Under the pieces are notes generated by a model. That model had not been told where the DNA came from. It saw nothing but the letters and a program-made list of their open reading frames with translations, and ran no database searches. From a virus (taxonomy: Duplodnaviria; Caudoviricetes), in IMG/VR virus record IMGVR_UViG_3300044641_006843, positions 1 through 26,935 of that record: a DNA stretch of 26,935 nucleotides, one strand, 5' to 3'. Positions within the stretch are counted from its first letter, which is position 1. Each line of letters opens with the position of its first letter. A program made the translations under genes and the position numbers. Positions 1-16,900 of this stretch are shown here, in pieces.

Positions 1-503
1 CATTGCGAGCGATTGGGCAGGACGAACGTGGCGTCGGTGAAGCCGTTCTTCTGGGAATACTGAATGTTGGTGACCTTGGTCTTCTTGGCGTTCTTGAATT
101 CCGGAGGCATGTACTTCCAGATGACGGCCTGTTGCATCTGGATGGAGGTCTGGGACGTGGTGTGCAGGCACCAGATTCTGGAATTAGGCCTAGTGCACAG
201 CAGTTGCATAACCCTCTTGGCGGCGTACTCGGTCTTTCCGGCTCGGTTGCCGCCCATGATGAGGAGCTCGTTGCCGTTCATCAGCAGGGAGTCGGCGTCC
301 GCCCAACTCTCGGGCTCGTACCCGTGCCTGTATGGGTCTGCGATTTCGGCCTGAATCTTCTCCTCTCGGCGTTGCAGGATGTCGGCCGTTTTTTGGGCCC
401 CGATTTTGTGGGCCAGCCCTAACACTTCTTCCTCAGTAGGAAGGTGTATGATGGGATGCTTGGTCAGCCGCATCCCCGCCACGGTGACGGTATCCAAGCT
501 CAT
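1..503 (-). CDS. terL: Terminase large subunit, N-terminal ATPase part (runs off window start; absent from ORF track)
   Basis: Hand translation from ATG at 503: MSLDTVTVAGMRLTKHPII...DPYRHGYEPESWADADSLLMNGNELLIMGGNRAGKTEYAAKRV...RIWCLHTTSQTSIQMQQ. GGNRAGKT is a terminase-type Walker A. Start overlaps the upstream stop (ATGA). Confidence 0.9.
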   Translation of the reverse strand, partial: MSLDTVTVAGMRLTKHPIIHLPTEEEVLGLAHKIGAQKTADILQRREEKIQAEIADPYRHGYEPESWADADSLLMNGNELLIMGGNRAGKTEYAAKRVMQLLCTRPNSRIWCLHTTSQTSIQMQQAVIWKYMPPEFKNAKKTKVTNIQYSQKNGFTDATFVLPNRSQ

Positions 504-1066
504 GCATTACTCTGGCCGTCTTCAAGATTGATGTATGAGGCCGTCATGGCCCTGTCCCATTGCCTGAGGTTGAGCACGGGAAACGCACCCTGATAGGTGA
601 CGGGTGCGAACCGGAACGGCCCGAGCGAGATGCCCGCCACGCTCAACCCCATGGTCGGAATCATGTTCTTCATTCCGCCGACCGCGACCTGAGCGAGCCT
701 CGACTCGCTTCGGCCGAAGGCCGAACCGGAATTTTTGTAGGGCTTGATTACAGACTTCGCACCACCCCCAGAGACGTCTCTCTGTGGTGGGATACGCTCA
801 GTCTTGGTGACCTGCTGAGGACCTACGTCATAACTTTGCAGGTTGGCCATCGGGTGGTCTCCCCAATAGGACCTGCCAAGCTTCTGAACTTCCAGCTTTT
901 CTCCTGAAGGTTTGTACGGGCCCTTCTGGAGCATCTCCTCCTTCGGAGGAGCAGGCTCTCCGGATGGAGCATGAGGCATGACCCTGAACATGCCATTGCC
1001 TCGGAGCGTCGGGTCGAGGCGGGGGTTATCCCCGCTCGGTAGAATGACGTCCTTTTCTTCGGCCAT
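500..1066 (-). CDS. Hypothetical phage protein (188 aa)
   Basis: ORF abutting or overlapping both neighbours on the same strand; no recognisable motif. Confidence 0.8.
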   Translation of the reverse strand: MAEEKDVILPSGDNPRLDPTLRGNGMFRVMPHAPSGEPAPPKEEMLQKGPYKPSGEKLEVQKLGRSYWGDHPMANLQSYDVGPQQVTKTERIPPQRDVSGGGAKSVIKPYKNSGSAFGRSESRLAQVAVGGMKNMIPTMGLSVAGISLGPFRFAPVTYQGAFPVLNLRQWDRAMTASYINLEDGQSNA

Positions 1067-1177
1067 TTAACCCACGATGCTTTCCCAGATGTCGAGGAGC
1101 TTGTCGGAGTAGCGGACTCCGACGTAGACGCCTCCGAGGAAGGAGACGACCGAAGCGATGATGATGAAGGTAATCAT
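1067..1177 (-). CDS. Small single-pass membrane protein (36 aa)
   Basis: MITFIIIASVVSFLGGVYVGVRYSDKLLDIWESIVG*; ATGA overlap with upstream stop; its TAA abuts the next ATG and it fills the gap exactly. Confidence 0.75.
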   Translation of the reverse strand: MITFIIIASVVSFLGGVYVGVRYSDKLLDIWESIVG

Positions 1178-1605
1178 TTGAACGGGTTGAATTTGGAAGA
1201 TTCGCCGGGGCCGTATTTTTCGCCCATACGCCACGAGGGAATCCTGTCTTTGTTCACGTCAAGACTGCTGGTGTTGCCATACTTGTCCTTGGCGAGCTTC
1301 ACCCTCTTGTTTCGAGACATGAGTCCGTAGCCAGAGTTGATTTTACGGGCACCTTCCAAGTCGGAAAGGCTCATGCTTTCTCCGCCGGTACGGGCCTTCC
1401 ACGACTTAACATAATCAGCTCCCTTTTTCAGACTAGAAGCCTGTGCCTTCTGAGTCCTGTACTCGCTCATGTATGACGCCGTATCTTCCCTGAATGAGCC
1501 GATTCCGAGCTTAGAAGGCCTTCCCCTTTTCGAAAGAACGGATTTGCCCTCTTTAGTGAAGAGCTTGGCAGCGGCCTTGAGGAATTTTCCGGGAATCTTC
1601 ATCAC
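1174..1605 (-). CDS. Basic Lys/Ser/Gly-rich hypothetical protein (143 aa)
   Basis: Coupled ORF in the terminase operon; strongly basic composition. Confidence 0.75.
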   Translation of the reverse strand: MMKIPGKFLKAAAKLFTKEGKSVLSKRGRPSKLGIGSFREDTASYMSEYRTQKAQASSLKKGADYVKSWKARTGGESMSLSDLEGARKINSGYGLMSRNKRVKLAKDKYGNTSSLDVNKDRIPSWRMGEKYGPGESSKFNPFK

Positions 1606-2420
1606 ATTCCGCCGCGAGCGGCGTTCTTCTGCTGGCGATAGTGGTTCTGGAGGCCGTCGTTGGCCTTGTGGACTCCGTAGCCAGCGGCGATGGAGGCACC
1701 GGTGATGATGCCAGCACGACGGTTCTTGGACATGCCAGAAGGAACGTTGGAGAACTTGGGAGCGGCGAATTCAGGCATCTTGAAATTCATCGCCTTCTTG
1801 GGGTTCACAATCTTGCCGTCAGGAGTTTTTTCGTAACCGCCGACATAGACCTTATTCGGCTTCTTCATCGAGTTCATGAACTTGCCTTTGCCAGTCCCCT
1901 TACGCATGCGATTCATCAGATTGTCGGGAAGCTTGGGCTCGTCCCACTTAGGGCCACCGCCGGGCATGATGCCCGGATTCTTCGCGGGCACGGCCCAATT
2001 CTTGCCGTTGTAGCCGGGGCTAGAGGTGGACTTGCCGTAGATGTCCTTGTTGCCACGCATCTTGTCGGCCGCGGCCTTGATGCCGGGGTTTTTCTTGGCC
2101 CAGCTGTCGTAGTTCTTGGGAGAGACTCCCTTCATGGGAGACTTGCTGGCGACGTCATCGAGCGTCAGACCACCGCTACGACCGACGTTGTAACCACGAC
2201 GAGCTTCACGAGCACCAGAAGCGATGCCGCGACCAGCGGACTGAGCCGCGTCGCGAACGCCGCGAACACCCTTGATGGTGGCGGCTTGCGTGTTGCGGGT
2301 ACCGGCACCGAGCTTATCGACGGAGCTACCGAGGCCCTTGCCGATTTTACTGCCGAGCTGGGTCAGGTACCTGACGCCCTTGCCGACGGCACGACCTGCT
2401 TTGAAAGGATTGATAGGCAT
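1602..2420 (-). CDS. Basic Gly/Lys-rich low-complexity protein with C-terminal hydrophobic Gly/Ala stretch (272 aa)
   Basis: A/C-rich leader before ATG; AGIITGASIAAGYGV near C-terminus; internal W..(.)KNPGI repeat. Confidence 0.8.
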   Translation of the reverse strand: MPINPFKAGRAVGKGVRYLTQLGSKIGKGLGSSVDKLGAGTRNTQAATIKGVRGVRDAAQSAGRGIASGAREARRGYNVGRSGGLTLDDVASKSPMKGVSPKNYDSWAKKNPGIKAAADKMRGNKDIYGKSTSSPGYNGKNWAVPAKNPGIMPGGGPKWDEPKLPDNLMNRMRKGTGKGKFMNSMKKPNKVYVGGYEKTPDGKIVNPKKAMNFKMPEFAAPKFSNVPSGMSKNRRAGIITGASIAAGYGVHKANDGLQNHYRQQKNAARGGM

Positions 2421-2453
2421 GTTAGTTGTAGGCTTTTTGTTTCGCGACCGGCG

Positions 2454-2495
2454 TTAGCAACGCTTGCCGCCCTTCTTCTTGGTGTTCTTCTTCAT
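2454..2495 (-). CDS. Putative 13-aa basic peptide MKKNTKKKGGKRC
   Basis: ATG overlaps the upstream TGA (ATGA); all Lys codons are AAG as in neighbouring genes; ends in TAA. Confidence 0.45.
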   Translation of the reverse strand: MKKNTKKKGGKRC

Positions 2496-2998
2496 TGTGG
2501 AGAATTACGTTTGATGAGAGTGTTGAGTCGTAGGATGGACGTGGGGCGATGCTCGCAAAAGTACCTGCCGCCGCGATGCTTAACTACGACGGGCATACGC
2601 GGTTTGAACGGCCTTGAGTCGAAAACGTTGCAGAAGACCGACTTTCCGTTCTCTAACTTGACCAACATTACCCTTGTGTTGGGGTAATCGCATCTGAGCA
2701 CGTCAGCCTTCACCATGACCTCCGGGTCCTTCTCGGCAGGCTTCATGACGGTGACTTCGGGAGGCTTGCCAGCCTCCGTCTTGGCATGGACCTCAATCAG
2801 GCCGAAACGCTCGACGACCTTATCCCAGCCGGATTGCGTGAAAACAATAGGACACGTCCTGAGCGGCCTGCGGCCCTGAGGGAAGCGTTCCCAATGTTCG
2901 CCCTCGTTGAGCGATTTCCTGAAATTCGTCAGTTCGTCCTTAGGGACGCCGAAACGCTCCACGACGTCAGATTCCTTCCATTGGGTCACTTCGCTCAT
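2492..2998 (-). CDS. Hypothetical protein (168 aa), possible N-terminal helix-turn-helix
   Basis: Coupled to rusA by ATGA; N-terminus WKESDVVERFGVPKDELTNFRK is HTH-like. Confidence 0.75.
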   Translation of the reverse strand: MSEVTQWKESDVVERFGVPKDELTNFRKSLNEGEHWERFPQGRRPLRTCPIVFTQSGWDKVVERFGLIEVHAKTEAGKPPEVTVMKPAEKDPEVMVKADVLRCDYPNTRVMLVKLENGKSVFCNVFDSRPFKPRMPVVVKHRGGRYFCEHRPTSILRLNTLIKRNSPQ

Positions 2999-5925: not shown

Positions 5926-5953
5926 TTGACCTAGGACAAGGAGAACACATGTT
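5926..5953 (+). promoter_or_regulatory. Candidate promoter for tRNA array / early operon
   Basis: TTGACC-16 nt-CATGTT, followed by leader hairpin GTCAGCC-GATGA-GGTTGAC (5961-5979). Confidence 0.35.
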
Positions 5954-5988
5954 CGTTTGAGTCAGCCGATGAGGTTGACGTGTTCTTC

Positions 5989-6058
5989 AGCAGGCGATGC
6001 GGTTCATCAGGCGGGTTTCATAAGCCCAGCCTTCGTGGTTCGACTCCACGGCTTGCTA
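5989..6058 (+). tRNA. Non-canonical tRNA-like RNA, anticodon CAT, tRNA-Pyl-like architecture
   Basis: Acceptor AGCAGGC/GCTTGCT, no linker before D stem GATG/CATC (5-nt loop), bulged anticodon stem GC-GGGT/GCCC-A-GC, loop TTCATAA, 3-nt variable loop, T arm CGTGG-TTCGACT-CCACG. Confidence 0.75.
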
Positions 6059-6066
6059 CAATTCTA

Positions 6067-6136
6067 CGTGGGTACATTGAGCGGCAGGACTCCTACTCCC
6101 TGCCTACTGAGGTTCAAGTCCTTAGGCCCACTCCCA
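6067..6136 (+). tRNA. D-armless tRNA-like RNA, anticodon CCT
   Basis: Acceptor GTGGGT/GCCCAC, about 9 unpaired nt in place of the D arm, stem GGCA-GGA/TCC-C-TGCC, loop CTCCTAC, T arm CTGAGG-TTCAAGT-CCTTAG, ends in CCA. Confidence 0.65.
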
Positions 6137-6141
6137 CTTAA

Positions 6142-6219
6142 TGCAGGGTAGAGCAGTCCGGTTAGCTCGCCAGCTTCATACGCTGAAGGTCGTAGGTTCA
6201 AATCCTACCCCTGCACCCA
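6142..6219 (+). tRNA. tRNA-Met(CAT) on an initiator-type scaffold with altered anticodon arm
   Basis: TGCAGGG/CCCTGCA, D stem GAGC/GCTC (A11-U24), anticodon arm CCAGC-TTCATAC-GCTGA, variable AGGTC, T arm GTAGG-TTCAAAT-CCTAC, encoded CCA. Confidence 0.9.
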
Positions 6220-6222
6220 TTT

Positions 6223-6289
6223 GGGGATACTTGGAAGGCGTGACCGATTCCTAACGACACACGCACGGGTTCGATTCCCGTTATCTCCA
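6223..6289 (+). tRNA. tRNA-like RNA with alanine-type acceptor (G3-U70, A73), vestigial D arm and TTCCTAA loop
   Basis: GGGGATA/TATCTCC + A; D region only CTTGGAAG; GCGTG/CACGC stem enclosing an irregular loop containing TTCCTAA; T arm ACGGG-TTCGATT-CCCGT. Confidence 0.65.
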
Positions 6290-6407
6290 TCATCTTGGCG
6301 TCCTAACACGTGGCCTTGGCTATCATCCTCAATCACGAGGTGCCTAAACGCCCCTAGCGGGGCATCACTTTAACCCGCCCTAACGGGCACAACCACAACA
6401 CACGAAC

Positions 6408-6497
6408 ATGCACATCAGCATCAATACGCTAATCGCCATCGCGGCGGCTCTGGACCTCGCTTCCTTCATCGGAATCATCGTCCTCATCGCCCGATAA
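6408..6497 (+). CDS. Small hydrophobic peptide (29 aa)
   Basis: MHISINTLIAIAAALDLASFIGIIVLIAR*; preceded by the shared CACACGAAC-ATG leader and followed by a TTCG hairpin. Confidence 0.65.
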   Translation: MHISINTLIAIAAALDLASFIGIIVLIAR

Positions 6498-6566
6498 CGA
6501 CAGCGGGCCCTTCGGGGCCACACTTTCCCACCACACACACAAACACACACACGGAGAAATACGACA

Positions 6567-7445
6567 ATCAAGACCATCAATAACATCAACTGTAACGTGG
6601 AAATCGCGTCCTTCAACAAGGGCAACACCTACAGCAACGACACTCGCAAGGGCCTGTACGACGGCATCGAGCGTGACCTCAAGGCCATCTGGAACGAGGT
6701 CGCAGGCTTCGACCTGCACAAGGGCTACTACCTCGCCTTCCGCAAGAACGAGGACGGCAGTTGGGGCGAGGACTTCGCGGCCACCATCAAGGTGGACGAA
6801 GCCTACCTCGAAAGCCACATCCGCCGTCGCAACGAACAGATTGAGAAGTGGCTGGAAATCCCGGCCCTCAAGGCTCTCAAGAAGGAAGGCGAACTGTCCC
6901 GCTATCCCACGCACACCTGCAGTATCTTCCAGATTGAGGCCAGCCATGGCTCTCGCTGGAACGAGAAGTGCAAGCTTGTCGTCGGCCCTGACTACGGATT
7001 CGACGTGTTCACGCCCAAGGCTCTGGCCGAAGAGCCGGACCTGCACCCTGTGCACAAGGCCTACAGTTACCTGCAGGACGGCAAGTACAAGCAACTCAAG
7101 ACGGACAAGCCGTATCGCCTCTTCAAGCACTACGTCCAACTGTTCTTCGAGACGCTCAAGGACGTCGAGGCCGGATACAATAAGGCCGAAGAACTCGCCA
7201 AGCCTCACGCCGACTACCTCGCCAAGCTCGAATCGTTCGAGGCCGTGTGCGAGAAGCTCAACGACAAAATCCACAGCCAGCTGAACCCGGATGCCAAGCC
7301 CGAGCACTATCGACGCACCTACGTCGAGGCACGTGAAGACCGCATCTACCTCAGCAACTGCGTACTCAACAGCGAAGAGAACATCGACGTCGCGTCTCAG
7401 ATTCTCGAACTGATTGACAAGCTCAAGTTCGCCAAGCAAAGCTAA
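6567..7445 (+). CDS. Hypothetical early protein (282-292 aa; start GTG 6597 or in-frame ATC 6567)
   Basis: Strong C/G third-position bias; frame is open upstream of the GTG. Confidence 0.85.
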   Translation: MKTINNINCNVEIASFNKGNTYSNDTRKGLYDGIERDLKAIWNEVAGFDLHKGYYLAFRKNEDGSWGEDFAATIKVDEAYLESHIRRRNEQIEKWLEIPALKALKKEGELSRYPTHTCSIFQIEASHGSRWNEKCKLVVGPDYGFDVFTPKALAEEPDLHPVHKAYSYLQDGKYKQLKTDKPYRLFKHYVQLFFETLKDVEAGYNKAEELAKPHADYLAKLESFEAVCEKLNDKIHSQLNPDAKPEHYRRTYVEAREDRIYLSNCVLNSEENIDVASQILELIDKLKFAKQS

Positions 7446-7463
7446 CTTCCCACACACACGAAC

Positions 7464-7745
7464 ATGAAGAACCACAAGTACATCAATCTCAGCGAAATCG
7501 CTGGGGTGAAACCCAACAACAAGGTGACCAAGGTCAACAAGCCTTACATCTCGGTTGTACAAATCCAAGGCGGCGGCTCCGCCAGCGACGAGGTGACCCA
7601 GCGGGCATATGCCCTCAAGGCCCGCTTCGAAGCCGTGAAGAAGGAGTTCGCATCACGCGGAGTCCGTTTCTCGCGACACGTCTGGGCAACCGACGCCATC
7701 GATAAGGCCTTGGCCGACTTGGAAAAAACCCTCAACCTAAGCTAA
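7464..7745 (+). CDS. Hypothetical protein (93 aa)
   Basis: Leader TTCCCACACACACGAAC-ATG; early-type codon bias. Confidence 0.8.
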   Translation: MKNHKYINLSEIAGVKPNNKVTKVNKPYISVVQIQGGGSASDEVTQRAYALKARFEAVKKEFASRGVRFSRHVWATDAIDKALADLEKTLNLS

Positions 7746-7750
7746 CGACC

Positions 7751-8011
7751 ATGCATCTGTACAAGAATCCGTTGCTCGATTGGGCAATCCGCGGCGAGGG
7801 TGAAGCACCCTCGCTGTTCAAGGCCAAGCAACTCCTGCTCATCCTCAATGAGTCGGATACCGACGCCAAGAACCTGCTCATCAACCTCGAAGACCGCCAC
7901 AAGCAGGCCTTGAAAATCAAGGCCGACATCGAGAAGGGCATCGAGAACGTCACCAAGTACGTCAATGAACATCCTAAAAACAAAGAGCAAGGCCCAGCCC
8001 AAGAGTCCTGA
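7751..8011 (+). CDS. Hypothetical protein (86 aa), helical/coiled-coil
   Basis: ACGACC-ATG start context; codon bias. Confidence 0.75.
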   Translation: MHLYKNPLLDWAIRGEGEAPSLFKAKQLLLILNESDTDAKNLLINLEDRHKQALKIKADIEKGIENVTKYVNEHPKNKEQGPAQES

Positions 8012-8180
8012 GGCCCTCAAGCTTTGGCAACTCGCCCGGATTGCGTCCTACCTGCATCAGGAATACGCGTCCTCGAAAGACCCTTACGCCGAGACCCTTG
8101 CTTTGTCCGCACTCGACCTACGCAACCATAGCGTCGAGGCGGCTAAGCGGGCCACCATTTCCACCCAACACAAAGCATGA
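7965..8180 (+). CDS. Hypothetical protein (71 aa)
   Basis: Fills the gap; its TGA overlaps the next ATG. Confidence 0.6.
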   Translation: MNILKTKSKAQPKSPEALKLWQLARIASYLHQEYASSKDPYAETLALSALDLRNHSVEAAKRATISTQHKA

Positions 8181-9028
8181 AGCACTACGACATCCACGGG
8201 GACAACGTCATCAGTCTGAAGATTGAGAACGCCAAGCTCCTTAACCTCAGCGAGTCTGAGTACCGGCCGATGGCCGCGTTGAATCAGTCCTACATCAAGG
8301 ACTGCTACAACGTGTCGCCCTCCTACGCCGAGTACCGGCTCAAGAACCCGGAGATTGGCCCTGCCCTCATCTTCGGCTCAGCCCTGCACCACTACGTGCT
8401 GGAGCAAAGCACGTTCTACGGGCATTACGCAGTCGCACCACAATGCGACCGCCGCACATCGTCCGGTAAGGCTACGTGGGAGGCATTCGTCGCTGAGAGC
8501 GGTGACAAGACCGTGCTCAAGGAGGAGGACTTCCACAAGATTCACGCCATGGCCAAGGCATTGGGCACGTTGTTCCAAAGCACCGCAGTCGGTGCCAAGT
8601 ACGTCGTCGAGCAATGCATCGTGGCCGACGCCGTGGTTACCGAAGGCGAGTTCAAGGGTGCACCGCTACGCCTGAAGGCGAAGTTCGATTGGCTTAGCCT
8701 GTCGGATGACAAGCTCGTGACCAAGGACCTCAAGAGCATCGCCGACATCACGTCGGTGGTGGGAGCCTCGTACAACAACGGTTGGGCGATTCAGTCGGCG
8801 TTCTATTCGGACCTCATGACCGCCTACAAGCCGGTGCCTAACGACTTCTACTACATCCCTGTGAGCAAGGAGGAGCCGCACGACGCCCGAGTGTTCAAGG
8901 TCAGCGACGAGATGCTCATCGCCGGACGTAAGCGTTACCTGTCAGCCATCCACAAGATGCTCTGGTGGGAAGCCAACGGACGCCCGGACACCGCACAGTT
9001 CCACGGAATCGACTACCTCAATGGCTAA
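8177..9028 (+). CDS. RecE / exonuclease VIII-like PD-(D/E)xK nuclease (DUF3799-like)
   Basis: EYRPMAALNQSYIK, FGSALHHYVLE, DRRTSSGK, LKAKFDW, DLKS, QSAFYSD, VSKEEP. Confidence 0.88.
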   Translation: MKHYDIHGDNVISLKIENAKLLNLSESEYRPMAALNQSYIKDCYNVSPSYAEYRLKNPEIGPALIFGSALHHYVLEQSTFYGHYAVAPQCDRRTSSGKATWEAFVAESGDKTVLKEEDFHKIHAMAKALGTLFQSTAVGAKYVVEQCIVADAVVTEGEFKGAPLRLKAKFDWLSLSDDKLVTKDLKSIADITSVVGASYNNGWAIQSAFYSDLMTAYKPVPNDFYYIPVSKEEPHDARVFKVSDEMLIAGRKRYLSAIHKMLWWEANGRPDTAQFHGIDYLNG

Positions 9029-9689
9029 GGATTTCGAATTCAAGGGCATCTGGATTCCGTCACGGGTGTTCCTCGACGCCCGGCTGACCCAATCCGATAA
9101 GTTCCTGTTCGGGGTGATTCACATCCTGTGCAACGAGCGTGGGTGCTTCGCCACCCGCGAGAGCTTGTCCGAGTACATGGGTCAGTCCGTGCGAAACACG
9201 CAGTACAGCATCTGCCGCCTGATTGACTGTGGTTACGTCCGCAAGGACGAGGATGGCGTCCTCTGGGACATCATCAGCCATACTCTGGACCGGGGTGAAA
9301 AGCCTTTCACCGGGGGGGTGAAAGTTTCTTCACCTAAGGGGCGAAAAAATCTTCACCCAGATAGTAATAAGGATGGATACAAGGTTATAGAACAGGCGGA
9401 GGGGTCAGATGAGCCTGTCTTGGTCAATGACTCCTTCATCCGGTCCAATGCCGCCCTAGCGGCCGTCTGGGACCGTTTCCTGTCCTTCCGCCGCTCCCGT
9501 CGCTGGCCCACGAACAACGAGTACGTCGAACGCTGGAATACCTGCTTTGCGTCTTGGGGGGCCGAGAAGGCCGCTCAGGCAGTCGAGCAGAGCCTCCTGC
9601 AGGGCTGGCAGGGCATCTTTGAGCCCAAGAAGGGTTTCCCCTCGAACATTCAACCAAAGACCGACAATGACCACGCCAAAGGGTTCTGA
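9021..9689 (+). CDS. Phage replication initiator (winged-helix N-terminus)
   Basis: FKGIWIP...LTQSDKFL...GCFATRESLSEYMGQSVRN...LIDCGYV; C-terminal WDRFLSFRR...QSLLQGWQGIF; internal iterons; lies upstream of a DnaC-like gene. Confidence 0.85.
   Translation: MAKDFEFKGIWIPSRVFLDARLTQSDKFLFGVIHILCNERGCFATRESLSEYMGQSVRNTQYSICRLIDCGYVRKDEDGVLWDIISHTLDRGEKPFTGGVKVSSPKGRKNLHPDSNKDGYKVIEQAEGSDEPVLVNDSFIRSNAALAAVWDRFLSFRRSRRWPTNNEYVERWNTCFASWGAEKAAQAVEQSLLQGWQGIFEPKKGFPSNIQPKTDNDHAKGF
9292..9357 (+). repeat. Three 20-bp iterons at 23-bp period: probable replication origin
   Basis: GGGGTGAAAAGCCTTTCACC (9292), GGGGTGAAAGTTTCTTCACC (9315), GGGGCGAAAAAATCTTCACC (9338), each with internal dyad symmetry, followed by a more AT-rich tract. 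Confidence 0.8.
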
Positions 9690-10356
9690 GGCACCCCTGT
9701 GCCGTAACTTCAACTGCAACAACCCGGCCCACATCCGGGAGTATGCCGAGAACATCGCCATCTACGAGACGTTGTGCAAGCCATGCATGGTGGCTTGGGA
9801 CAAGATGGTGATGTCCTTTGGCATGCCCAAGAAGCCTAAGCCCGAGACGCCCATGCCTGAGCTCTTCGCCGACACCGACCCTAGTCGGTTGGGCGAGCTT
9901 CAGATGGTGGCTGAGCACTATCTGCCTTCGGGCAAGGGACTGCTCATCCACGGCACGACCCGTAAGGGGAAAACACGTACGGCTTGGTTCATCGCCAACC
10001 GGCTTTGGAACGAGGACAATCACAAGTACAAGTACCTGTTCTTGACCATGTTCGAGCTCGAGGCCCGCATCGCCTCGTCTTGGGGCAACAGTTCGTGGGA
10101 TAAGACGATGCTCCAGATGACCAACGTGCCGTTGTTGTTCCTTGATGACTTAGGCAAAGAGAAGATGACTGAACGCATGGCCTCATGCCTGTTTGCCCTC
10201 GTAGACCAGCGTACGATGCACAAGCGTCCTACGATTATCACTACGAACCTGACCGGAGAGACGTTGCTCGAACGATTCCACGACAAGGAAACGGGTGCGG
10301 CCTTTGTCGCACGGCTCAAGGACTGCGACCTGTTTGAACGCGTAGCCGCCCGATGA
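9667..10356 (+). CDS. DnaC/IstB-like AAA+ ATPase (helicase loader)
   Basis: Walker A GTTRKGKT, Walker B LLFLDDLGKE, PTIITTN, N-terminal Cys pairs (CRNFNC, CKPC); ATG at 9667. Confidence 0.9.
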   Translation: MTTPKGSEAPLCRNFNCNNPAHIREYAENIAIYETLCKPCMVAWDKMVMSFGMPKKPKPETPMPELFADTDPSRLGELQMVAEHYLPSGKGLLIHGTTRKGKTRTAWFIANRLWNEDNHKYKYLFLTMFELEARIASSWGNSSWDKTMLQMTNVPLLFLDDLGKEKMTERMASCLFALVDQRTMHKRPTIITTNLTGETLLERFHDKETGAAFVARLKDCDLFERVAAR

Positions 10357-10520
10357 GCCAGAAGCGTCGCCCTGAACGACTCAAGCCCGGCCTCAAATTG
10401 CTGACGCCACACGAACAAAAAATCGTGGCCAACCACGGCAAAGAGGTGCTCGAAATGTGGAAGTCGTTGTACTCCAAGAACAAATGGACGCCTCAGCCGG
10501 ACATAAAAAAGACGAAATAA
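10353..10520 (+). CDS. Small basic hypothetical protein (55 aa; below track cutoff)
   Basis: MSQKRRPERLKPGLKLLTPHEQKIVANHGKEVLEMWKSLYSKNKWTPQPDIKKTK*; ATGA-coupled to the ATPase. Confidence 0.65.
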   Translation: MSQKRRPERLKPGLKLLTPHEQKIVANHGKEVLEMWKSLYSKNKWTPQPDIKKTK

Positions 10521-10609
10521 AACTTGATTCAAACTACAAAAGCTATTGCATCATCTACCTCGACCCTGTGAAAGCAGGGTATAACCAACGACAACCAACC
10601 AGCACGACC

Positions 10610-10843
10610 ATGATTAACATTGACCACATCAATGCCCGACTCGCCGACCTCCAAAAGGAAATCGACGTCATCAAGGCCGAGAAGCAGAACATCGAGAACC
10701 CGACCATCAAAGGTCTGGGCATCAAGTTCAGCGAACTCGACCTCAGCAAGGCCTCTGCTGTCATCCACCTCCACAACGCCCTTATTGAGCGTATTGAGGA
10801 ACTGACGGCGAAGGTGCAGGCCCTCGAAGCGAAAGCCAAGTAA
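10610..10843 (+). CDS. Coiled-coil hypothetical protein (77 aa)
   Basis: CACGACC-ATG leader; heptad pattern INARLADLQKEIDVIKAEK. Confidence 0.8.
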   Translation: MINIDHINARLADLQKEIDVIKAEKQNIENPTIKGLGIKFSELDLSKASAVIHLHNALIERIEELTAKVQALEAKAK

Positions 10844-10892
10844 GCCCAAGGGGGTGCAAAGCCCCCACCAATTTCCACACACACACACGACC

Positions 10893-11090
10893 ATGAATGC
10901 CATCGAAGAAAAGAAAAACAACCTCAACAAGCACCTCTGCGAGCTTGTGAGTGAACTCAAAGACTACGTCAAAGCCAAGCGAGCCGAATACCGAAAGAAG
11001 CCGGTGTACCTGAAGAAGGACTCCGACGTCTGCGTAGACAAGCTCCGCAACGCCTTTGAGCAGTTCATCGCCGAAACCTACCGCGACTAA
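10893..11090 (+). CDS. Hypothetical protein (65 aa)
   Basis: TTTCCACACACACACACGACC-ATG leader. Confidence 0.75.
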   Translation: MNAIEEKKNNLNKHLCELVSELKDYVKAKRAEYRKKPVYLKKDSDVCVDKLRNAFEQFIAETYRD

Positions 11091-11091
11091 C

Positions 11092-11385
11092 ATGCCCGAC
11101 AAGACCGCACAGTCCTACAACGGCTACGCCAACCACGAAACGTGGGAGGTCGCCAACTACATCTCCAACGACCCGCACCTGTACGACCTGTGCAAGCAGT
11201 TCTACCAATCCGGGTACAAGACGTGGGGTAGCCTCAGCCTTAAGCTTCGCGAGTTCGGACGCCATTGGCAGTCCGTCAACAACCCGATTCGCATCGACCT
11301 GCGTGACCCGCATGTCCGGGCCGCTGAAATCACCAGCCTCCTTAACAGCCTCTTCCATGAAACCAAACAAAACCACCAACGATAA
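11092..11385 (+). CDS. Conserved phage protein with YNG(W/Y)xNxETW motif (97 aa)
   Basis: SYNGYANHETWEVANYISNDPHLY; ATG one base after the upstream TAA. Confidence 0.75.
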   Translation: MPDKTAQSYNGYANHETWEVANYISNDPHLYDLCKQFYQSGYKTWGSLSLKLREFGRHWQSVNNPIRIDLRDPHVRAAEITSLLNSLFHETKQNHQR

Positions 11386-11548
11386 CTCTTCGAAGCTCCT
11401 TTGGGTCAAAGTTCCTGAGCCCCATGCGACGAAGCTGAAGGACACGGCCGAAAAAATCGGAATCTCCCGTGCCGACTTCATGCGTCTCATCCTCATCAAC
11501 TTCGTCACCAACGACAGCAACACCTTCACCATCTCCACCCAAAAATGA
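11357..11548 (+). CDS. Ribbon-helix-helix (CopG/Arc-like) DNA-binding protein (63 aa)
   Basis: LLWVKVPEPHATKLKDTAEKIGISRADFMRLIL: strand-helix-G.S-helix pattern. Confidence 0.7.
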   Translation: MKPNKTTNDNSSKLLWVKVPEPHATKLKDTAEKIGISRADFMRLILINFVTNDSNTFTISTQK

Positions 11549-12297
11549 GTACTAACATCACACCCGAATTCGCGGCCGCATACACAGCCGCGGTAGCCCG
11601 CACCCGTGACGTCGTAGCCGACGCCACCAACCCGTTCCACAAGAACGTCTACGCCACCCTCGGTGCCCACATCGCGGCCACCAAGGCAATCTTCGCTCAG
11701 TACGAACTCGCCATCGTGCAGTTCCCTGTGTCGAACAGCGTCAACCGCGGTGAAATCGGCGTCGAGACCATGGTCATCCATTCGTCCGGCGGTTATTTCT
11801 CCCGCACCATCCTGATGCCTGTCGCTGACGGCGTAAAGGGTCAGGACGTAGGCTCGCTGGTCTCGTACTTGCGACGCTATGCCATCGCTGGCGTTGCGAA
11901 TCTGGCTACTTCTGATGACGACGCAGAGTCCGACCGCGAGGTCCGCACCATCCCTGCTCCCAAGCTCATCCAGCTTCCCAAGGAAGCACCGAAGGCTCCT
12001 GCCGCTCCTGCCCCCAAGGCTCCGGTCGCTCAGGCTCCCATCGTCGCTCCGGGTAGCAACTCCGACTTGGCCAAGGCCCTCGACTTCATCCTGCCTTTTG
12101 GCAAGAACAAGGGCTCACGCCTCGGCGACCTCGCCAAGAACTCGCTCGATTGGTACATTAAGGAGTACCAGCCCAAGCCCTACAACGGCAAGATTAGCGA
12201 CAAGGACATCGCCCTCCGGGAAGCCCTTGACCTGATTCGCGACAACCGCGAGGCCCAGCACGAAGAGGTCATCTCCTCGGACGACGTACCGTTCTAA
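11545..12297 (+). CDS. erf: ERF-family single-strand annealing protein
   Basis: NPFHKNVYATL, QDVGSLVSYLRRYAIAG...DDDA; Pro/Ala linker; LPFGKNKG domain; acidic DDVPF tail. Confidence 0.9.
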   Translation: MSTNITPEFAAAYTAAVARTRDVVADATNPFHKNVYATLGAHIAATKAIFAQYELAIVQFPVSNSVNRGEIGVETMVIHSSGGYFSRTILMPVADGVKGQDVGSLVSYLRRYAIAGVANLATSDDDAESDREVRTIPAPKLIQLPKEAPKAPAAPAPKAPVAQAPIVAPGSNSDLAKALDFILPFGKNKGSRLGDLAKNSLDWYIKEYQPKPYNGKISDKDIALREALDLIRDNREAQHEEVISSDDVPF

Positions 12298-12304
12298 ATA
12301 ACTT

Positions 12305-12376
12305 GGCCTCATCGTTCAACGGATAGGACAAGCGTTTCCTAAACGCTTAATCTAGGTTCGATTCCTAGTGGGGCCA
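12305..12376 (+). tRNA. tRNA-Arg(CCT), canonical
   Basis: GGCCTCA/TGGGGCC, D arm GTTC-AACGGATA-GGAC with A20, AGCGT-TTCCTAA-ACGCT, T arm CTAGG-TTCGATT-CCTAG, A73; CCA not encoded. Confidence 0.95.
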
Positions 12377-12400
12377 TTAACTTTCCACCCGCACACGCAC

Positions 12401-12811
12401 ATGCATAACAGCACAAACACCCAGACCGCACCGGCACCCCGCCAGCGGTATCACCGCAATGTCGGCGACCGCAAGGTCACCCACATCAACGCCGCCCTCA
12501 TCGGGTCCATCGCTGGAAACGAAGTCATCAGCACTTCCGTCGCCAAGAATGTACTCGCTGAACTCGAAGCCATCGCCGTCGCAACCGGCGTGAGCCGCTC
12601 CGAAATCATCCGCGGTGCAGTCATCCGTGAAGTCGCATTCCGGAAGTACTGCGAGGCCAGCAAGGTCAAGGACATCACAGTCCTTTGTGGATACAAGGCG
12701 AGCGACAAGCCCCGCACCAAGGGCGAGGCCACCGACGCCAAGAAGAAGGAAGCCCCGAAGCTCTCCGCCAAACAGCGGAAGTATCTGGAACGCCTTCTCG
12801 CTTCTGCCTGA
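12401..12811 (+). CDS. Hypothetical protein with RHH-like segment (136 aa)
   Basis: ISTSVAKNVLAELEAIAVATGVSRSEIIRGAV; CA-rich leader before ATG 12401. Confidence 0.7.
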   Translation: MHNSTNTQTAPAPRQRYHRNVGDRKVTHINAALIGSIAGNEVISTSVAKNVLAELEAIAVATGVSRSEIIRGAVIREVAFRKYCEASKVKDITVLCGYKASDKPRTKGEATDAKKKEAPKLSAKQRKYLERLLASA

Positions 12812-12940: not shown

Positions 12941-13654
12941 CTATGCTCTCCGCCCTTTAGGGCTGAGCAAGCGGCATTTTACTTCCCTGTGGGTATGCAG
13001 GCCAGCGTACAAGCCGTACGCGATGCCTACGCCGACGCTGATGCCCAAGGCCCACCTGAACCACAACGCCTCGACCACGTCCCTTAGGACAAACGGCGTG
13101 GCGGCACACACGCCAGAAAGCAGGAACATGATGACACCGGCCCTCAGGCCTTTGCCGATGAACGTATTTGCAACCATGAATGCGGCCCCTGCGAATCCGA
13201 ATGCGAGAGCCATAAGCAAGAAAGTGTCTTGGACCTCTTTCCAAGCTTCCTCCTTCTTCATGGCCGAGATGCTGTTCCTCAGGCTTTCATTCTCCCTGTC
13301 CTTGTCTGCGATTACCTTGGCCATCTTGGTGGTCTCTGCGTCCACCTGCTTGGCCTTGGTCTGCTCGGCTTCGAGTGCCTTGGAGTTGGTTATGGTCTTG
13401 TCGAACTTGTCCACCTGTTCGGCCGTAGGCTTCTTGATGCCAGACAGCCGCGTCTCGGTGAGGTCAAGCAACGGCTTGCCCTTACCTTCAACGTTCTTCT
13501 TGGCTACGATGATGGCCGCGGCACCTTCGCTGGCCTCATGCTCAAGCCGGTCAACGTAAGCATCTTTGCTTTTGCTTGGCGGCTCAGGCTGGACGACAGG
13601 CTTGGGTGCTGACCCACAACCGCATAACAGAATGACGAGAGCTAGGTATCTCAT
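12941..13654 (-). CDS. Lipoprotein with coiled coil and C-terminal TM helices; spanin-like (237 aa)
   Basis: MRYLALVILLCGC lipobox, helical periplasmic-type region, three hydrophobic segments; ATGA-coupled to the holin-like gene. Confidence 0.6.
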   Translation of the reverse strand: MRYLALVILLCGCGSAPKPVVQPEPPSKSKDAYVDRLEHEASEGAAAIIVAKKNVEGKGKPLLDLTETRLSGIKKPTAEQVDKFDKTITNSKALEAEQTKAKQVDAETTKMAKVIADKDRENESLRNSISAMKKEEAWKEVQDTFLLMALAFGFAGAAFMVANTFIGKGLRAGVIMFLLSGVCAATPFVLRDVVEALWFRWALGISVGVGIAYGLYAGLHTHREVKCRLLSPKGRRA

Positions 13655-13932
13655 TTGATTCGAAGGACGCGACGCCGGGCCAGCTCCACCACTTCTGGTG
13701 CAAACGTACCGGCCACGGCGTAGATGACCGCCTCGTAAATGGGGGCCACCAAGCCGTGCACCGCGAAATAGCAGATGATACCGATGAGTGCACCGGCTAT
13801 GGTCCTGCGTACCCACACCAGCCAACTATGCTCTTCGTCGCTGATGAGCAGGCGAAGCAAGGCACCCATGGCACCGAGTGCGGCCATGAGCCACCCGCTG
13901 TCTTTTAGGTCATCGAGCGGGTCGGGACTCAT
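13651..13932 (-). CDS. Putative holin (93 aa)
   Basis: Three hydrophobic segments and basic C-terminus (ARRRVLRIK). Confidence 0.65.
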   Translation of the reverse strand: MSPDPLDDLKDSGWLMAALGAMGALLRLLISDEEHSWLVWVRRTIAGALIGIICYFAVHGLVAPIYEAVIYAVAGTFAPEVVELARRRVLRIK

Positions 13933-16900
13933 CGTCTCGGGTCTGCTTGGGTGTCCTGAACCAATTGTATGCGTCCTTCATGGCGGCCACCTTGGTCTGG
14001 TTGCTCTGGTCTCCGAGGGACATCAGCGTGACGCCATCGACGATTAGCTTGGCCATTTCTGAAGCGTGGCTTGCGGTCGGGAAGTTCGGCTTGATGACGA
14101 GCATCGGTCCGTTGAAAGACACGACCCTAGACATGCCAGCGGCGATTTCCTGAGAGCTGGAATTGGCATCCAGACCCATGGCATGCAACATCATAGGAAC
14201 AGGTGCGGACCATCCGATGCCTTCCGACCTGATATCGTACGGCCCAATCGCTTCTGCCTTGGAGGAACGAAGAGTCGCGAGATTCGCTTGGTCAGCGAAA
14301 TCGCTAAAAGGCTCATCAGCAACGCTGGCAGGACCGGCGAATACTTCCGAGTACCTGCCTTCATTGTAGGCTTCCTTGGTGAGGCCCTGAAGCCCGCTAC
14401 CTGCCCTTAGGTCGGTGAACTCCTTCATGCCAGCAGGGTTCCTGATGAATCCTTCCTGCTTTGCGGCGGTTGTGACTTGGTGCGAAGCACTCCTGAACGA
14501 GGATTGCATGAACGCCTCCATGACGTAGGCACCTACACGAGAGTATTGCTTCAGGAACATCGTGAGATGGGGCACGTTGCCAAGATACTTGGACGCCTGT
14601 GCCGCACGTTCTTCCGCTTCTTCCATCGTGGCAATCTTCTCAAATAGAACTTTTCCGTTAGGAGCTAGGACGACGTAGGTCTTGTCGTTGGCCATCGCGA
14701 TGGACGCTTTTTCAAACGCATCATGCGACACGGCCTCGATGGCTTTCCTCGGATTGCCAGCGTAGTAGTATTCATTGAGCCACATGGGTGCACCGTAGTT
14801 GACGGCGTATCCATGAGTCTTGTCGTAAGGCATGGCCACAAGGATGCCTTCCGGAGAAGCCGTCACCTTGGACATGCGTTTCTTCATGTCATCGGAGTCG
14901 TTGACGCCTCGGTAGGTTTCATCAAGCTTGTCCTGAGCATACCCGCCTTCTTTGAGTTCTTTGTTCTTCTTGTAGACCGATTCGATGACTGCGGTGTAAT
15001 TCCTGACCGTTTTGTCCTTGTTTTTCTCCTCTGAGAACGCATCAGGGAATTCATCGATGACCTGTTTGCCAGCGTCGATGAGCCAGCTGGATACGGACTT
15101 CTTGGTTCCTTCGATTTCCACCTCGCTGGTGAAATCTAGGTTTTCGGCCCTTACCCGGTCGATGAGCTTGTTCATCATGCCACGCTTCCTCACAAGGTCC
15201 AAAACGTAAGCGGCCTCCGGTCCGATTTTGGCCGTGTTGGAGTATCCGCTTAGCATGAAGGTTTTGCCGCCGCCTAGGTTGACACCCAAGTTGACATATC
15301 CGGACGAACTGTATCGGCTTCTGTGGTGTCGGGCGTCGGCAATGACAAGTCCCCTTTGCCTCTTTTGGAGAGCCCTCATGACGTAGAAGTTTACCATGAT
15401 GGGCCTGTAGGCGTTGTCTTCGCCGTGCGGCATGCCGTCTGGGATTACGTTAGTCACCAAGTCTCCGTCTTCGTCCAGAGTCAGGCCGGTCTTCTTGGCA
15501 ATTTCAGCCTGACGTGCCTTGAGCTTTTCGGTCTCGGAGTTCTCCTTGAAGCTTTCATGAAGCACGGCGATGGCAGGAGCCATGGATTCCATGGTCTTAC
15601 CAAGGAACGTACGTGCCCTGTGCTGGATGTATCGGGTTCCCTGAGACTCGTACAGGCCGCTGACGGAATCCATGTCGTAGTCCATGTTCTTGAACAGGGA
15701 GCCGAAATTGCTCCTGAAATTCGAAGATGCCGGGTAGTCGGATGTGTAGAAACTGTTAAACCAATCGACAGCCCTCATTTCGCCGGACTTGCCTTTGTAC
15801 ACGCCGTTGACGAAATCACGAATCATCTGTCCGGTTAGGTCGCGGTTACCAGCGGCCAGCACGTCGGTCACTTGCTCCATGTCACCGCCGGAGGCGTCCA
15901 TTAGGAAGTTGACGGTCCTAGCCATCATGGTCCTAGGGCTCATGTACTGCCTGTTTTCGAGTATGCCAGACTCACGGGCCAGACGCATGGCGTCAGCAGG
16001 CGTGGGAGCGGAAATGCTGGCACGGTTGCAGAAAGCGATGACGAAGGCCCTGAGTTCAGACTCGGACGGACCTTCGAACATGGTCTTGTGGTCTGGGAAC
16101 ATCGGGTCATCGGTAGGCAGAGGAGACTGCGAACCATGCTGGTCGGTCATGCTGATTTTCGTGTCTTGATAGGCGATGTTCTTGGCCTCTCCGGAGGACA
16201 TGTCTTCCAAAATCCGTGCCATCTTCCTCATGGCCGCGACGTCTTGGACGGTAACCATGCCACGTTCCACAAGTCCTGACGTGAACTCTTGGTTTTCCGA
16301 CAACAGCCTTACTTTTGCTGCCCAATCAGCCGCCAGCTTGTCGAAATCGATTTTGTCGAATTTAGCGATTCCTCCGGCACCATCAGCCACCTTGCACAAA
16401 TCGGAAACTTCAGCCGTGTGTGCGATGAACTCGGGAGATAGTGCCAGAAGATACTTGGCCATGCCCTGAATCCTCAGCTCCATCGAATGGCCCCCGTTAA
16501 GGAAATAACCATAGCTCATGCCTCCGAATCCGGGCATGTTTTTTTCGACTCCTAGGAAGTAAGCGTTGATTGCACCGTCGAGAAGCTGGTTAATCGGCTC
16601 GTCCACCATCCTCCGATAAAGCCTAGTAGCATTGTCCGAAAGTTCTCCGACCGGGTAAAGGTCTGGAATCTTAGCAGGCAATCCGTAGTTCTTGGTAAGG
16701 CTTTCTGGCACGGAAACGTTGCCCCTAGAAGTCCATACGCTTGGGTCGTCATCCCTAGAGATAACGAACCTGAGGAACGGACCGGAGTTCATTACATCCC
16801 TCTTGGCCATTTCCTTGTTGATGTAGGCCGTGAAGTGACGCCTGACGTACTGCCTAGCCGTGTTGCTCAGCCAAGAACGCTTCTCGTTGAGATTCATCCT

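Follow-up and report, generated by a model that had tools for sequence, protein, structure and literature searches.

In some phages that recode a stop codon, the recoded codon is absent from early genes, is common in late genes and is accompanied by a phage tRNA for that codon. The tRNA-ProX family of Streptomyces and Kitasatospora (Schuntermann et al. 2023, PMC10404621) is presented, in the accessible part of that article, as a set of cloverleaf tRNAs encoded on the chromosome, which have proline identity and a dedicated ProRS isoform; the main text of the article does not use the word "phage". The allo-tRNAs (Mukai et al., PMC5389517), as far as the consulted sections go, have an 8/4 or 9/3 acceptor/T branch, serine or alanine identity and diverse anticodons, cause missense insertion and growth arrest in E. 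coli, and include irregular tRNA clusters. The phage examples in those sections are 8/4 Ser and His tRNAs, and no codon purge is described there. The nuclease-resistant phage tRNAs (van den Berg et al. 2023, PMC10264068) restore decoding as normal tRNAs, and the available sections of that paper report no difference in codon frequency. The mitochondrial tRNA-Ser without a D arm and tRNA-Pyl are treated in the corresponding sections of a review (PMC7609411) as normal adaptors with adapted partners. Phages are not mentioned in the main text of that review or of another one (PMC11415595). A codon-usage preprint of 2026 (PMC13015707) describes, in its available sections, no avoidance of the kind reported below.

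The window, meaning the whole stretch of DNA analysed here, is an entire virus record of 26,935 bases, estimated to be 56% of the genome of a tailed phage. It encodes terminase, RusA, SLT, exonuclease VIII-like, RepO-like, DnaC-like, ERF and ribbon-helix-helix proteins and a giant ORF of >4,300 aa. Complete relatives are ~48 kb long and have a capsid of the SU10 type. In the host search, the closest cultured terminase was 32% identical, and the Atlas clusters examined were viral and named no host. A search with the E4 pattern across bacterial genomes returned 4 loci, three ordinary tRNA-Ala genes and one short repeat of a tmRNA end, and likewise named no host. The repeat (L160, 5001-5062) is a short GGGGGTG...CATCTCCA copy of the tmRNA 3' end and follows a Treponema tmRNA gene. 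No integrase was found among 32 proteins or protein pieces of the complete relative G003 (Pfam) or among the 28 ORFs of the window.

The preliminary description had placed four tRNA or tRNA-like RNAs close together at 5989..6289. They are present there (E1 to E4, Table 1), separated by 6, 6 and 3 nt when the three 3' bases past each discriminator are counted. The loci of relatives were anchored on the upstream ORF, on RepO and on the E4 pattern; an anchor on ATGCACATC gave a single unrelated locus, L148. In the relatives, the replication gene block opens with a cassette in which canonical tRNAs and odd RNAs are variably combined; a leader with TTGAC, a hairpin and a T-rich run bounds it on one side and the 29-aa ORF on the other. 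Judged from the gene order, the cassette and the replication block would form one early transcript. The leader run is presumably boxA-like. The hairpin has a fold z of -2.78 and was scored as terminator-like, and a scan for the sigma-70 consensus gave 0 promoters in the leader. Text similar to the structured RNA downstream of E4 (TTGGCG...AAACGCCCC...GGGGC) occurs in several relatives. The 29-aa ORF has no match in PHROG or other families and could encode a small membrane protein.

Table 1. Positions of the features discussed (window coordinates unless a relative is named)
Feature	Position	Strand	Remarks
Late-type genes	1-2998	-	keep AGG, as do those at 12941-26935
Likely promoter and leader	5926-5989	+	TTGAC box 5926-5930; 7-bp hairpin 5961-5979; run GTGTTCTTCA
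E1	5989-6061	+	odd tRNA
E2	6068-6135	+	D-armless tRNA-like RNA
E3	6142-6219	+	canonical cloverleaf tRNA(CAT)
E4	6223-6292	+	odd RNA with alanine identity; core finding
Further structured RNA	6297-6365	+	ends in a G-C hairpin; fold z only -1.46
29-aa ORF	6408-6497	+	hydrophobic with central Asp; directly 3' of the cassette in all relatives inspected (by eye)
Early/replication block	6597-12811	+	exonuclease VIII-like, RepO-like, DnaC-like, ERF, ribbon-helix-helix; without AGG and AGA
Canonical tRNA-Arg(CCT)	12305-12376	+	between ERF and the ribbon-helix-helix gene; found by ARAGORN and Rfam
Late genes	12941-26935	-	lipoprotein-like ORF, giant ORF >4,300 aa; keep AGG
TGC-type odd RNA	L176 6803-6879; L178 7631-7707; L185 7433-7509		third body type; GCA purged

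Standard tRNA finders had been expected to miss or mislabel the odd elements, and this was borne out. ARAGORN and the Rfam tRNA model recognize only E3 and the tRNA-Arg at 12305 in the window; E1, E2 and E4 lie below the RF00005 cut-off, and ARAGORN at a lowered threshold labels E1 as tRNA-Glu. The minimum-energy folds are tRNA-like for all four (z of -4.08 for E1, -1.97 for E3, -1.52 for E4 and -1.44 for E2), but E2 and E4 taken alone fold no better than shuffled sequences. An acceptor stem and a TTCRA T arm had been attributed to each element; all four have them, except that the acceptor of E2 is 6 pairs plus an A·G mismatch. Both E3 and the tRNA at 12305 are ordinary, as proposed for normal counterparts of CAT and CCT. 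The CCT reading of E2 is less sure because of its 10-nt loop. The alternation CAT-CCT-CAT-CCT is present in the window but is specific to this lineage. The relatives carry other anticodons, those of E4 varying with the lineage, so the emphasis on exactly CAT and CCT does not hold for the family.

E4 is 70 nt long in all. It has a 7/5 acceptor/T organization, an 8-nt D region without a stem and a normal T arm. The anticodon arm consists of a 5-bp stem, an internal loop and a 2-bp stem, closed by the loop TT-CCT-AA with the anticodon at 6250-6252. G3 (6225), U70 (6286) and A73 (6289) give the acceptor an alanine identity. With the model R1, built from 11 of the E4 records, E4 was found in 17 distinct records at >=65 bits among 39 sources searched. 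In the alignment of these 11 sequences, 94.7% of cells are paired, a value reached by 0/500 shuffles, and 6/12 pairs (acceptor pairs 4-7 and two T-stem pairs) show two-sided changes. G1-C72, G2-C71, G3·U70 and A73 are constant in 11/11 sequences, G4-C69 is present in 8/11, and the string CGACAC (6255-6260) is invariant. The loop has the form N-U-anticodon-A; U33 occurs in 10/11 sequences and A37 in 11/11. The anticodon itself is exchanged between lineages: CCT, TAC, TTG, TAG, TAA, CAA and CCC occur, seven anticodons, all non-alanine. In bacteria, alanine identity resides in A73, G2-C71, G3·U70, G4-C69 and G20, with no anticodon element (PMC9976931, available sections). G3·U70, A73 and G2-C71 are all present in 11/11 E4 sequences, in which G20 cannot be placed.

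Like tRNA-ProX in the sections consulted, E4 combines one acceptor identity with several foreign anticodons, and A33 occurs both in ProX and in some of the RNAs here. According to the same sections, tRNA-ProX is toxic at matching codons when expressed; E4 is presumed to be. The system described here differs from that account in its phage location, alanine identity, missing D stem and matching codon purge, and in the lack of a synthetase gene: no aminoacyl-tRNA synthetase was found among the proteins scanned. C1:G72, diagnostic of ProX together with an adjacent ProRSx, is replaced by G1-C72 in 11/11. As in the allo-tRNAs described in PMC5389517, an alanine identity is combined with foreign anticodons, seven in number, but E4 and E1 are 7/5 rather than 8/4 or 9/3, and E4 has no D stem. 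The missing or shrunken D arm (E2, E4, E1) and the longer anticodon stem recall mitochondrial tRNA-Ser and tRNA-Pyl as covered in PMC7609411. The E4 homologues score 17.7-19.1 bits against the canonical tRNA model RF00005 and are not accepted by it. E4 resembles the tRNA-like domain of tmRNA (RF00023) in its GGGG...CUCCA acceptor with G3·U70, unpaired D region and T arm. It matches the tRNA-like ends only, at 32.7 bits, below the 47-bit cut-off. Unlike tmRNA, whose full length is about 350 nt, E4 lacks both an mRNA-like domain and a tag frame; a stretch of 328 nt in the model corresponds to 31 nt in E4, and an anticodon-type loop takes the place of the rest. ARAGORN detected no tmRNA in the window. 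E4 may descend from tmRNA or from tRNA-Ala.

The codons complementary to the E4 anticodons are purged from the early genes. Codons were counted in ORFs of >=45 aa in the early block, defined as extending from the cassette to the ribbon-helix-helix gene, at 19 loci. Genes were called with the author's own script, which has no synonymous preference beyond third-position GC. Anticodons were read before codons were counted, and for ten new loci the predictions were fixed in advance. The counts do not include L131, L133 and L136, which offer too little early sequence, or the AT-rich relatives L135, L140/L184 and L141, which have no E4 and to which the gene scoring is not tuned. In the window, AGG and AGA are both 0 of 98 Arg codons in 13 early genes. 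Expressed as target over synonymous codons, the early blocks gave 0/98, 0/95 and 0/104 in the AGG lineages, 0/108, 0/100 and 0/42 in the GTA lineages, 0/152, 0/153, 0/151 and 2/80 in the CTA lineages, 0/21 for CAA, 0/136 for TTA, 0/94 for GGG, and 1/152 for TTG in two identical loci. In lineages with an odd TGC RNA, GCA stands at 0/102, 1/180 and 0/61. Over the 18 carriers, which are related and do not amount to 18 independent tests, 5 target codons were seen against 203 expected. When one genome was taken per anticodon class, the matched codon ranked first for depletion among the 8 codons tested in 8/8 rows, and the true anticodon-codon pairing was the best of 40,320 permutations. It still ranked 1/5,040 without the GCA class and 1/720 without GCA and AGG, the class that had suggested the idea. 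The link between the E4 anticodon and the codon is thus strong. At the control locus L182, which has no E4, only AGA is at zero.

The purge is synonymous: the AGG sites of L132 are CGN in the window at 10/11 aligned positions. In G011 and G012 it goes no further than the block behind the cassette: the genes immediately upstream have retained the codon. AGG is missing in the window from all genes between 2995 and 12811, so the purge also covers five genes left of the cassette. Relatives with other E4 anticodons use AGG in their early genes. Normal tRNA bodies with the same anticodons cause no purge: AGG is 0/297 with the odd CCT RNA vs 184/816 with canonical Arg(CCT) only, and GCA is 1/343 with the odd TGC RNA vs 73/348 with canonical Ala(TGC). 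The tRNA-Arg(CCT) at 12305 is found at this site also in relatives whose early genes make free use of AGG; it is therefore older than the purge, and it likely serves the AGG-rich late genes.

Some counts depart from this pattern. TTA is too rare to test (rank 18/59), and the matched codon ranks 17 in L179 and 4 in G004. AGA is also 0 in the clade of the window, although a C34 anticodon should not read it. Gaps without a matching RNA were found in L176 (CAA 0/26) and G004 (CGT 4/106). The wobble codon CAT is 0/36 and 2/44 in the early genes of loci with a canonical His(GTG) (L173, 7902-7976; L174, 7993-8067), and the giant late gene of G012 keeps CAT at 27/81. GCG is 3/139 and 4/142 in early genes of loci with Ala(TGC) and Ala(GGC) (L175, 7832-7984; L180, 7262-7414). 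These CAT and GCG losses beside normal-looking tRNAs fit a loss or out-competition of host tRNAs. At L134 (4118-4187), another odd CCA-ending RNA has an ACG loop, and CGT and CGA are both 0/41 among the early Arg codons. This RNA is possibly a second poison body; G004 is poor in CGT without it.

The anticodon of the TGC-type RNA is itself an alanine anticodon. This RNA has an alanine acceptor with G3·U70, a 3-bp D stem, a 9-bp bulged anticodon stem, A33 and no variable loop. Its body differs from that of E4, but it lies at the same site and shares the acceptor and the string CACGACAC. In G013, a canonical Ala(TGC) stands at the ERF site, parallel to the Arg(CCT) of the window. If E4 were a functional adaptor that corrupts host proteins by inserting alanine at a non-alanine codon, its alanine identity under seven non-alanine anticodons and the complete, synonymous purge would be accounted for, and natural missense tRNAs are indeed toxic in E. 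coli in the accessible accounts of allo-tRNAs (PMC5389517) and tRNA-ProX (PMC10404621). Mis-insertion alone predicts that GCA is retained beside the odd TGC RNA, and this prediction failed, as GCA stands at 1/343 where the odd RNA has both alanine identity and an alanine anticodon. Alanine is the correct residue there, and this points to a harm that does not consist in a wrong amino acid. A missense weapon is unlikely: the TGC-type RNA of three relatives would have to harm in another way, and two mechanisms would be needed for RNAs at one site with a common acceptor and string. The stall reading set out below was adopted after the failed GCA prediction.

Late genes keep the codons that early genes lack. 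AGG makes up 140/227 Arg codons in the giant ORF and 161/309 (52%) over the late-strand genes of >=150 aa in the window, where it is the main late Arg codon. In matching lineages, late genes retain TTG at 13%, GGG at 11%, CTA at 8%, GTA at 8% and GCA at 12%. The AGG share of late Arg codons is 41-63% in eight relatives or records with tRNA-Arg(CCT), and 28% (G004) and 19% (G013) without it. The major capsid gene avoids AGG. The split of AGG between early (0) and late (52%) genes resembles that of stop-codon-recoded phages, as though E4 or E2 gave AGG the meaning Ala or Met in late genes, with early genes avoiding the ambiguity. Such a recoding of AGG is very improbable and largely refuted. In the terminase of the relative G001, 3/7 AGG sites are Arg in 71/71 distant homologues, and Ala accounts for 2% overall, with no Ala or Met signal; AGG therefore still means Arg, and its reassignment is rejected. 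AGG-rich late genes together with Arg(CCT) also occur in relatives with other E4 anticodons. Unlike in stop-codon-recoded phages, the codon concerned here is a sense codon whose meaning is unchanged, it varies between lineages, and the RNA that tracks it has an odd body of alanine identity.

A three-base match can affect an mRNA in two ways only: within the ribosome, or by the loss of the host tRNA for the codon. On balance, E4 is probably charged with alanine, delivered to the ribosome and apt to stall or derail elongation at its one codon. AlaRS would read G3·U70 and no anticodon base, so that any anticodon could be fitted without losing the charging. The acceptor-T helix, which is the part bound by EF-Tu, is intact. 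The missing D stem and the long, interrupted anticodon arm would permit codon pairing but no clean passage through the ribosome, and any mRNA with the matched codon would be poorly translated. Made first in infection, E4 could throttle new host proteins, defence responses included, and the phage might further gain by delaying its late genes or hindering a co-infecting relative; early genes would escape by synonymous recoding. Later, E4 would have to decay, be switched off or be outcompeted. This assumption is needed since the codon persists in late genes, and since a canonical tRNA for it is missing from four complete relatives (G003, G010, G011 and G012); in the window and G013 one is present.

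Of the roles suggested in the preliminary description, the specialized adaptor is the nearest to this reading of E4, with the amendment that the adaptor would be harmful. The decoy is the main rival for E4 and a possible role of E2. A host anticodon nuclease would destroy one host tRNA early, the phage would drop the codon from its early genes, and E4 (and E2) would be a decoy or a nuclease-resistant stop-gap reader with the same loop. This would yield the same anticodon-codon match and explain the GCA purge without a stall. That CAT and GCG are lost where canonical His and Ala tRNAs are present hints at a disturbance of the host tRNA pools, and the E2 loop turns over among near-identical phages, in L136 equalling that of E3. 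Phage tRNAs that answer host anticodon nucleases are an argued model in the available sections of PMC10264068, although the word "decoy" is absent from that text. The tRNAs of that model, so far as those sections describe them, fit E3 and the canonical tRNAs that rotate through the cassette in relatives; they are unlike E4, whose codon is removed.

The decoy explanation of E4 is nevertheless rather unlikely. It needs eight nuclease specificities among close relatives and leaves unexplained why G3·U70 is retained under every anticodon. Canonical Arg(CCT) already supplies AGG in the window, and relatives with Arg(CCT) use AGG freely. Late genes should suffer no less than early ones when a host tRNA is lost, yet they retain the codon although no phage tRNA takes the place of the lost one. 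When a C34 tRNA disappears, a U34 isoacceptor can usually take over by wobble. GGG and TTG are purged despite this expected cover; in L180, GGG is 0 while GGA stays at 18/94, so the U34 reader of that box seems intact. Action of E4 at the codon is favoured because the codon is purged from the downstream early genes alone and only where the odd body carries the anticodon, because only an alanine identity would preserve charging while anticodons are swapped, because the purge is codon-exact in most lineages and hits C34 codons that a wobbling isoacceptor should cover, and because it occurs in the window despite the canonical Arg(CCT). The preliminary description had overlooked that E4 has alanine identity (G3·U70), that its anticodon is swapped from one lineage to another and that the matching codon is purged. 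Among 13 early ORFs scanned with PADLOC, no toxin, nuclease or defence family was found as a partner, bar one weak match (E 0.002); the 14th early ORF was scanned in PHROGs only.

More tentatively, the stalling reading of E4 may be extended to a programmable RNA weapon. The first transcript would carry an alanine-charged, ribosome-jamming tRNA whose anticodon sets the lethal codon, and early genes would be immunized by codon erasure. The resulting self/non-self code could shut down the synthesis of host defences, exclude relatives with another code and time the phage's own late genes, a translational counterpart of a restriction system with site avoidance.

E1 has a 7-bp acceptor (A1-U72, G2-C71, C3-G70, A73) with a 7/5 branch, a D hairpin of 4 bp and a 5-nt loop joined to the acceptor without a linker, a 2-nt variable region and a 7-bp bulged anticodon stem with the anticodon CAT at 6019-6021. 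Its homologues in L132, L138 and L139 keep the fold with the anticodon CAC. In the E1 alignment, which has only 5 sequences, 95.3% is paired and 8/17 pairs show two-sided changes. E1 was considered as a poison: with E1(CAT), internal ATG is 22/1,927 codons vs 436/22,160 in other lineages (p 0.005), but L176 is equally low without E1(CAT). With E1(CAC), GTG is 12/108, 21/100 and 7/42, counts confounded with the wobble of E4(TAC). E2 has no D arm, a 6-bp acceptor, U73, a 6-bp stem and a 10-nt loop with CCT at 6092-6094. It occurs only in four near-identical phages, where the body is nearly constant and the loop is CCT (window and L137), CAT (L136) or CAC (L130). E2 was also considered as a poison, and L130 shows no GTG purge (37/118). 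It may be a decoy against anticodon nucleases, as its loop turnover suggests.

The odd folds had been regarded as selected rather than decayed, and relatives indeed keep the folds of E4 and E1 with compensatory changes; ordinary cloverleafs lacking covariation, an outcome named as fatal to that view, did not appear among the homologues. Decayed tRNAs, or remnants of tmRNA integration with chance codon gaps, would suit the lack of an encoded CCA in E1, E2 and E4 of the window (ends CAA, CCC and TCA), the resemblance of E4 to tmRNA ends and the poor folding of E2 and E4 alone. In the two closest relatives, E1 and E2 have an encoded CCA. As a whole this explanation is barely conceivable: for E4 and E1 it is refuted by their covariation, the presence of both acceptor halves and the permutation result, and for E2 it may hold.

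Bacterial initiator tRNAs have three consecutive G-C pairs at the base of the anticodon stem, an unpaired 1:72 and A73. E3 has an initiator-like body and an encoded CCA and scores 61.3 bits in Rfam, but its anticodon stem base is A-U, G-C, C-G, without three consecutive G-C pairs, and it has U1-A72 and C73; it is thus not a bacterial initiator tRNA. Relatives of E3 are annotated as tRNA-Met in many cultured phages, ~230 stretches in viral contigs have its loop pattern, and 14/92 parsed matches have its stem type. E3 is an ordinary, common phage variant. In two sequencing runs, probably of DNA and available as contigs, one 231-nt contig matches 6142-6292 unchanged, which is uninformative on expression.

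No report of such an RNA or of an anticodon-matched purge was found in the literature searched, mostly the main text of openly available articles; irregular phage tRNAs are listed in the supplements of PMC5389517 and may be relevant to novelty. Within the reach of this search, E4 with its anticodon-matched purge is new in kind. Phage tRNAs are usually read as decoding helpers; here, which codon the genes nearby have lost can be predicted from a tRNA-like RNA that matches it, and the codon differs per lineage. Whatever the mechanism, an RNA invisible to tRNA finders is tied to genome-wide synonymous recoding, and a comparison of odd-RNA anticodons with zero-count early-gene codons offers a simple screen for other phages. 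If E4 does block ribosomes, it would be a natural 70-nt codon-programmable translation inhibitor and a new route of host shut-off and phage-phage exclusion, and synthetic biology could use it for codon-selective control and for genetic isolation. If it is a decoy, the cassettes would map the targets of eight uncharacterized anticodon nucleases.

The cassettes hold a rich set of uncatalogued RNAs. Those of L130, L131, L139, L173, L175, L176, L182 and L185 include further conserved odd RNAs with acceptor-like ends (GAGGT...GCCTCACCA and GGGTC...GACCCTCCA), and an odd RNA in the L135/L140 cassette has the ends ACCAGCC...GGCTGGT; none of these has a standard T loop or anticodon arm. Two unrelated phages, of 362 kb (L152, 1501-1572, minus strand) and 64 kb (L151, 1501-1568, minus strand), have tRNA-like RNAs with G3·U70 within tRNA clusters. 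ARAGORN misses both, and one has a CCC loop.

The giant ORF (13910-26935, minus strand), with >4,300 aa in the window and about 5,400-5,700 aa in relatives, has no Pfam or PHROG match. The first large early gene of the window, as in L130, L136 and L137, encodes 282 aa from the GTG at 6597 and contains zero ATG. In the 6550-6600 region, its homology to relatives that start with ATG runs upstream to an in-frame ACG/ATC behind a GGAGA box, and this gene may start at a non-ATG codon.
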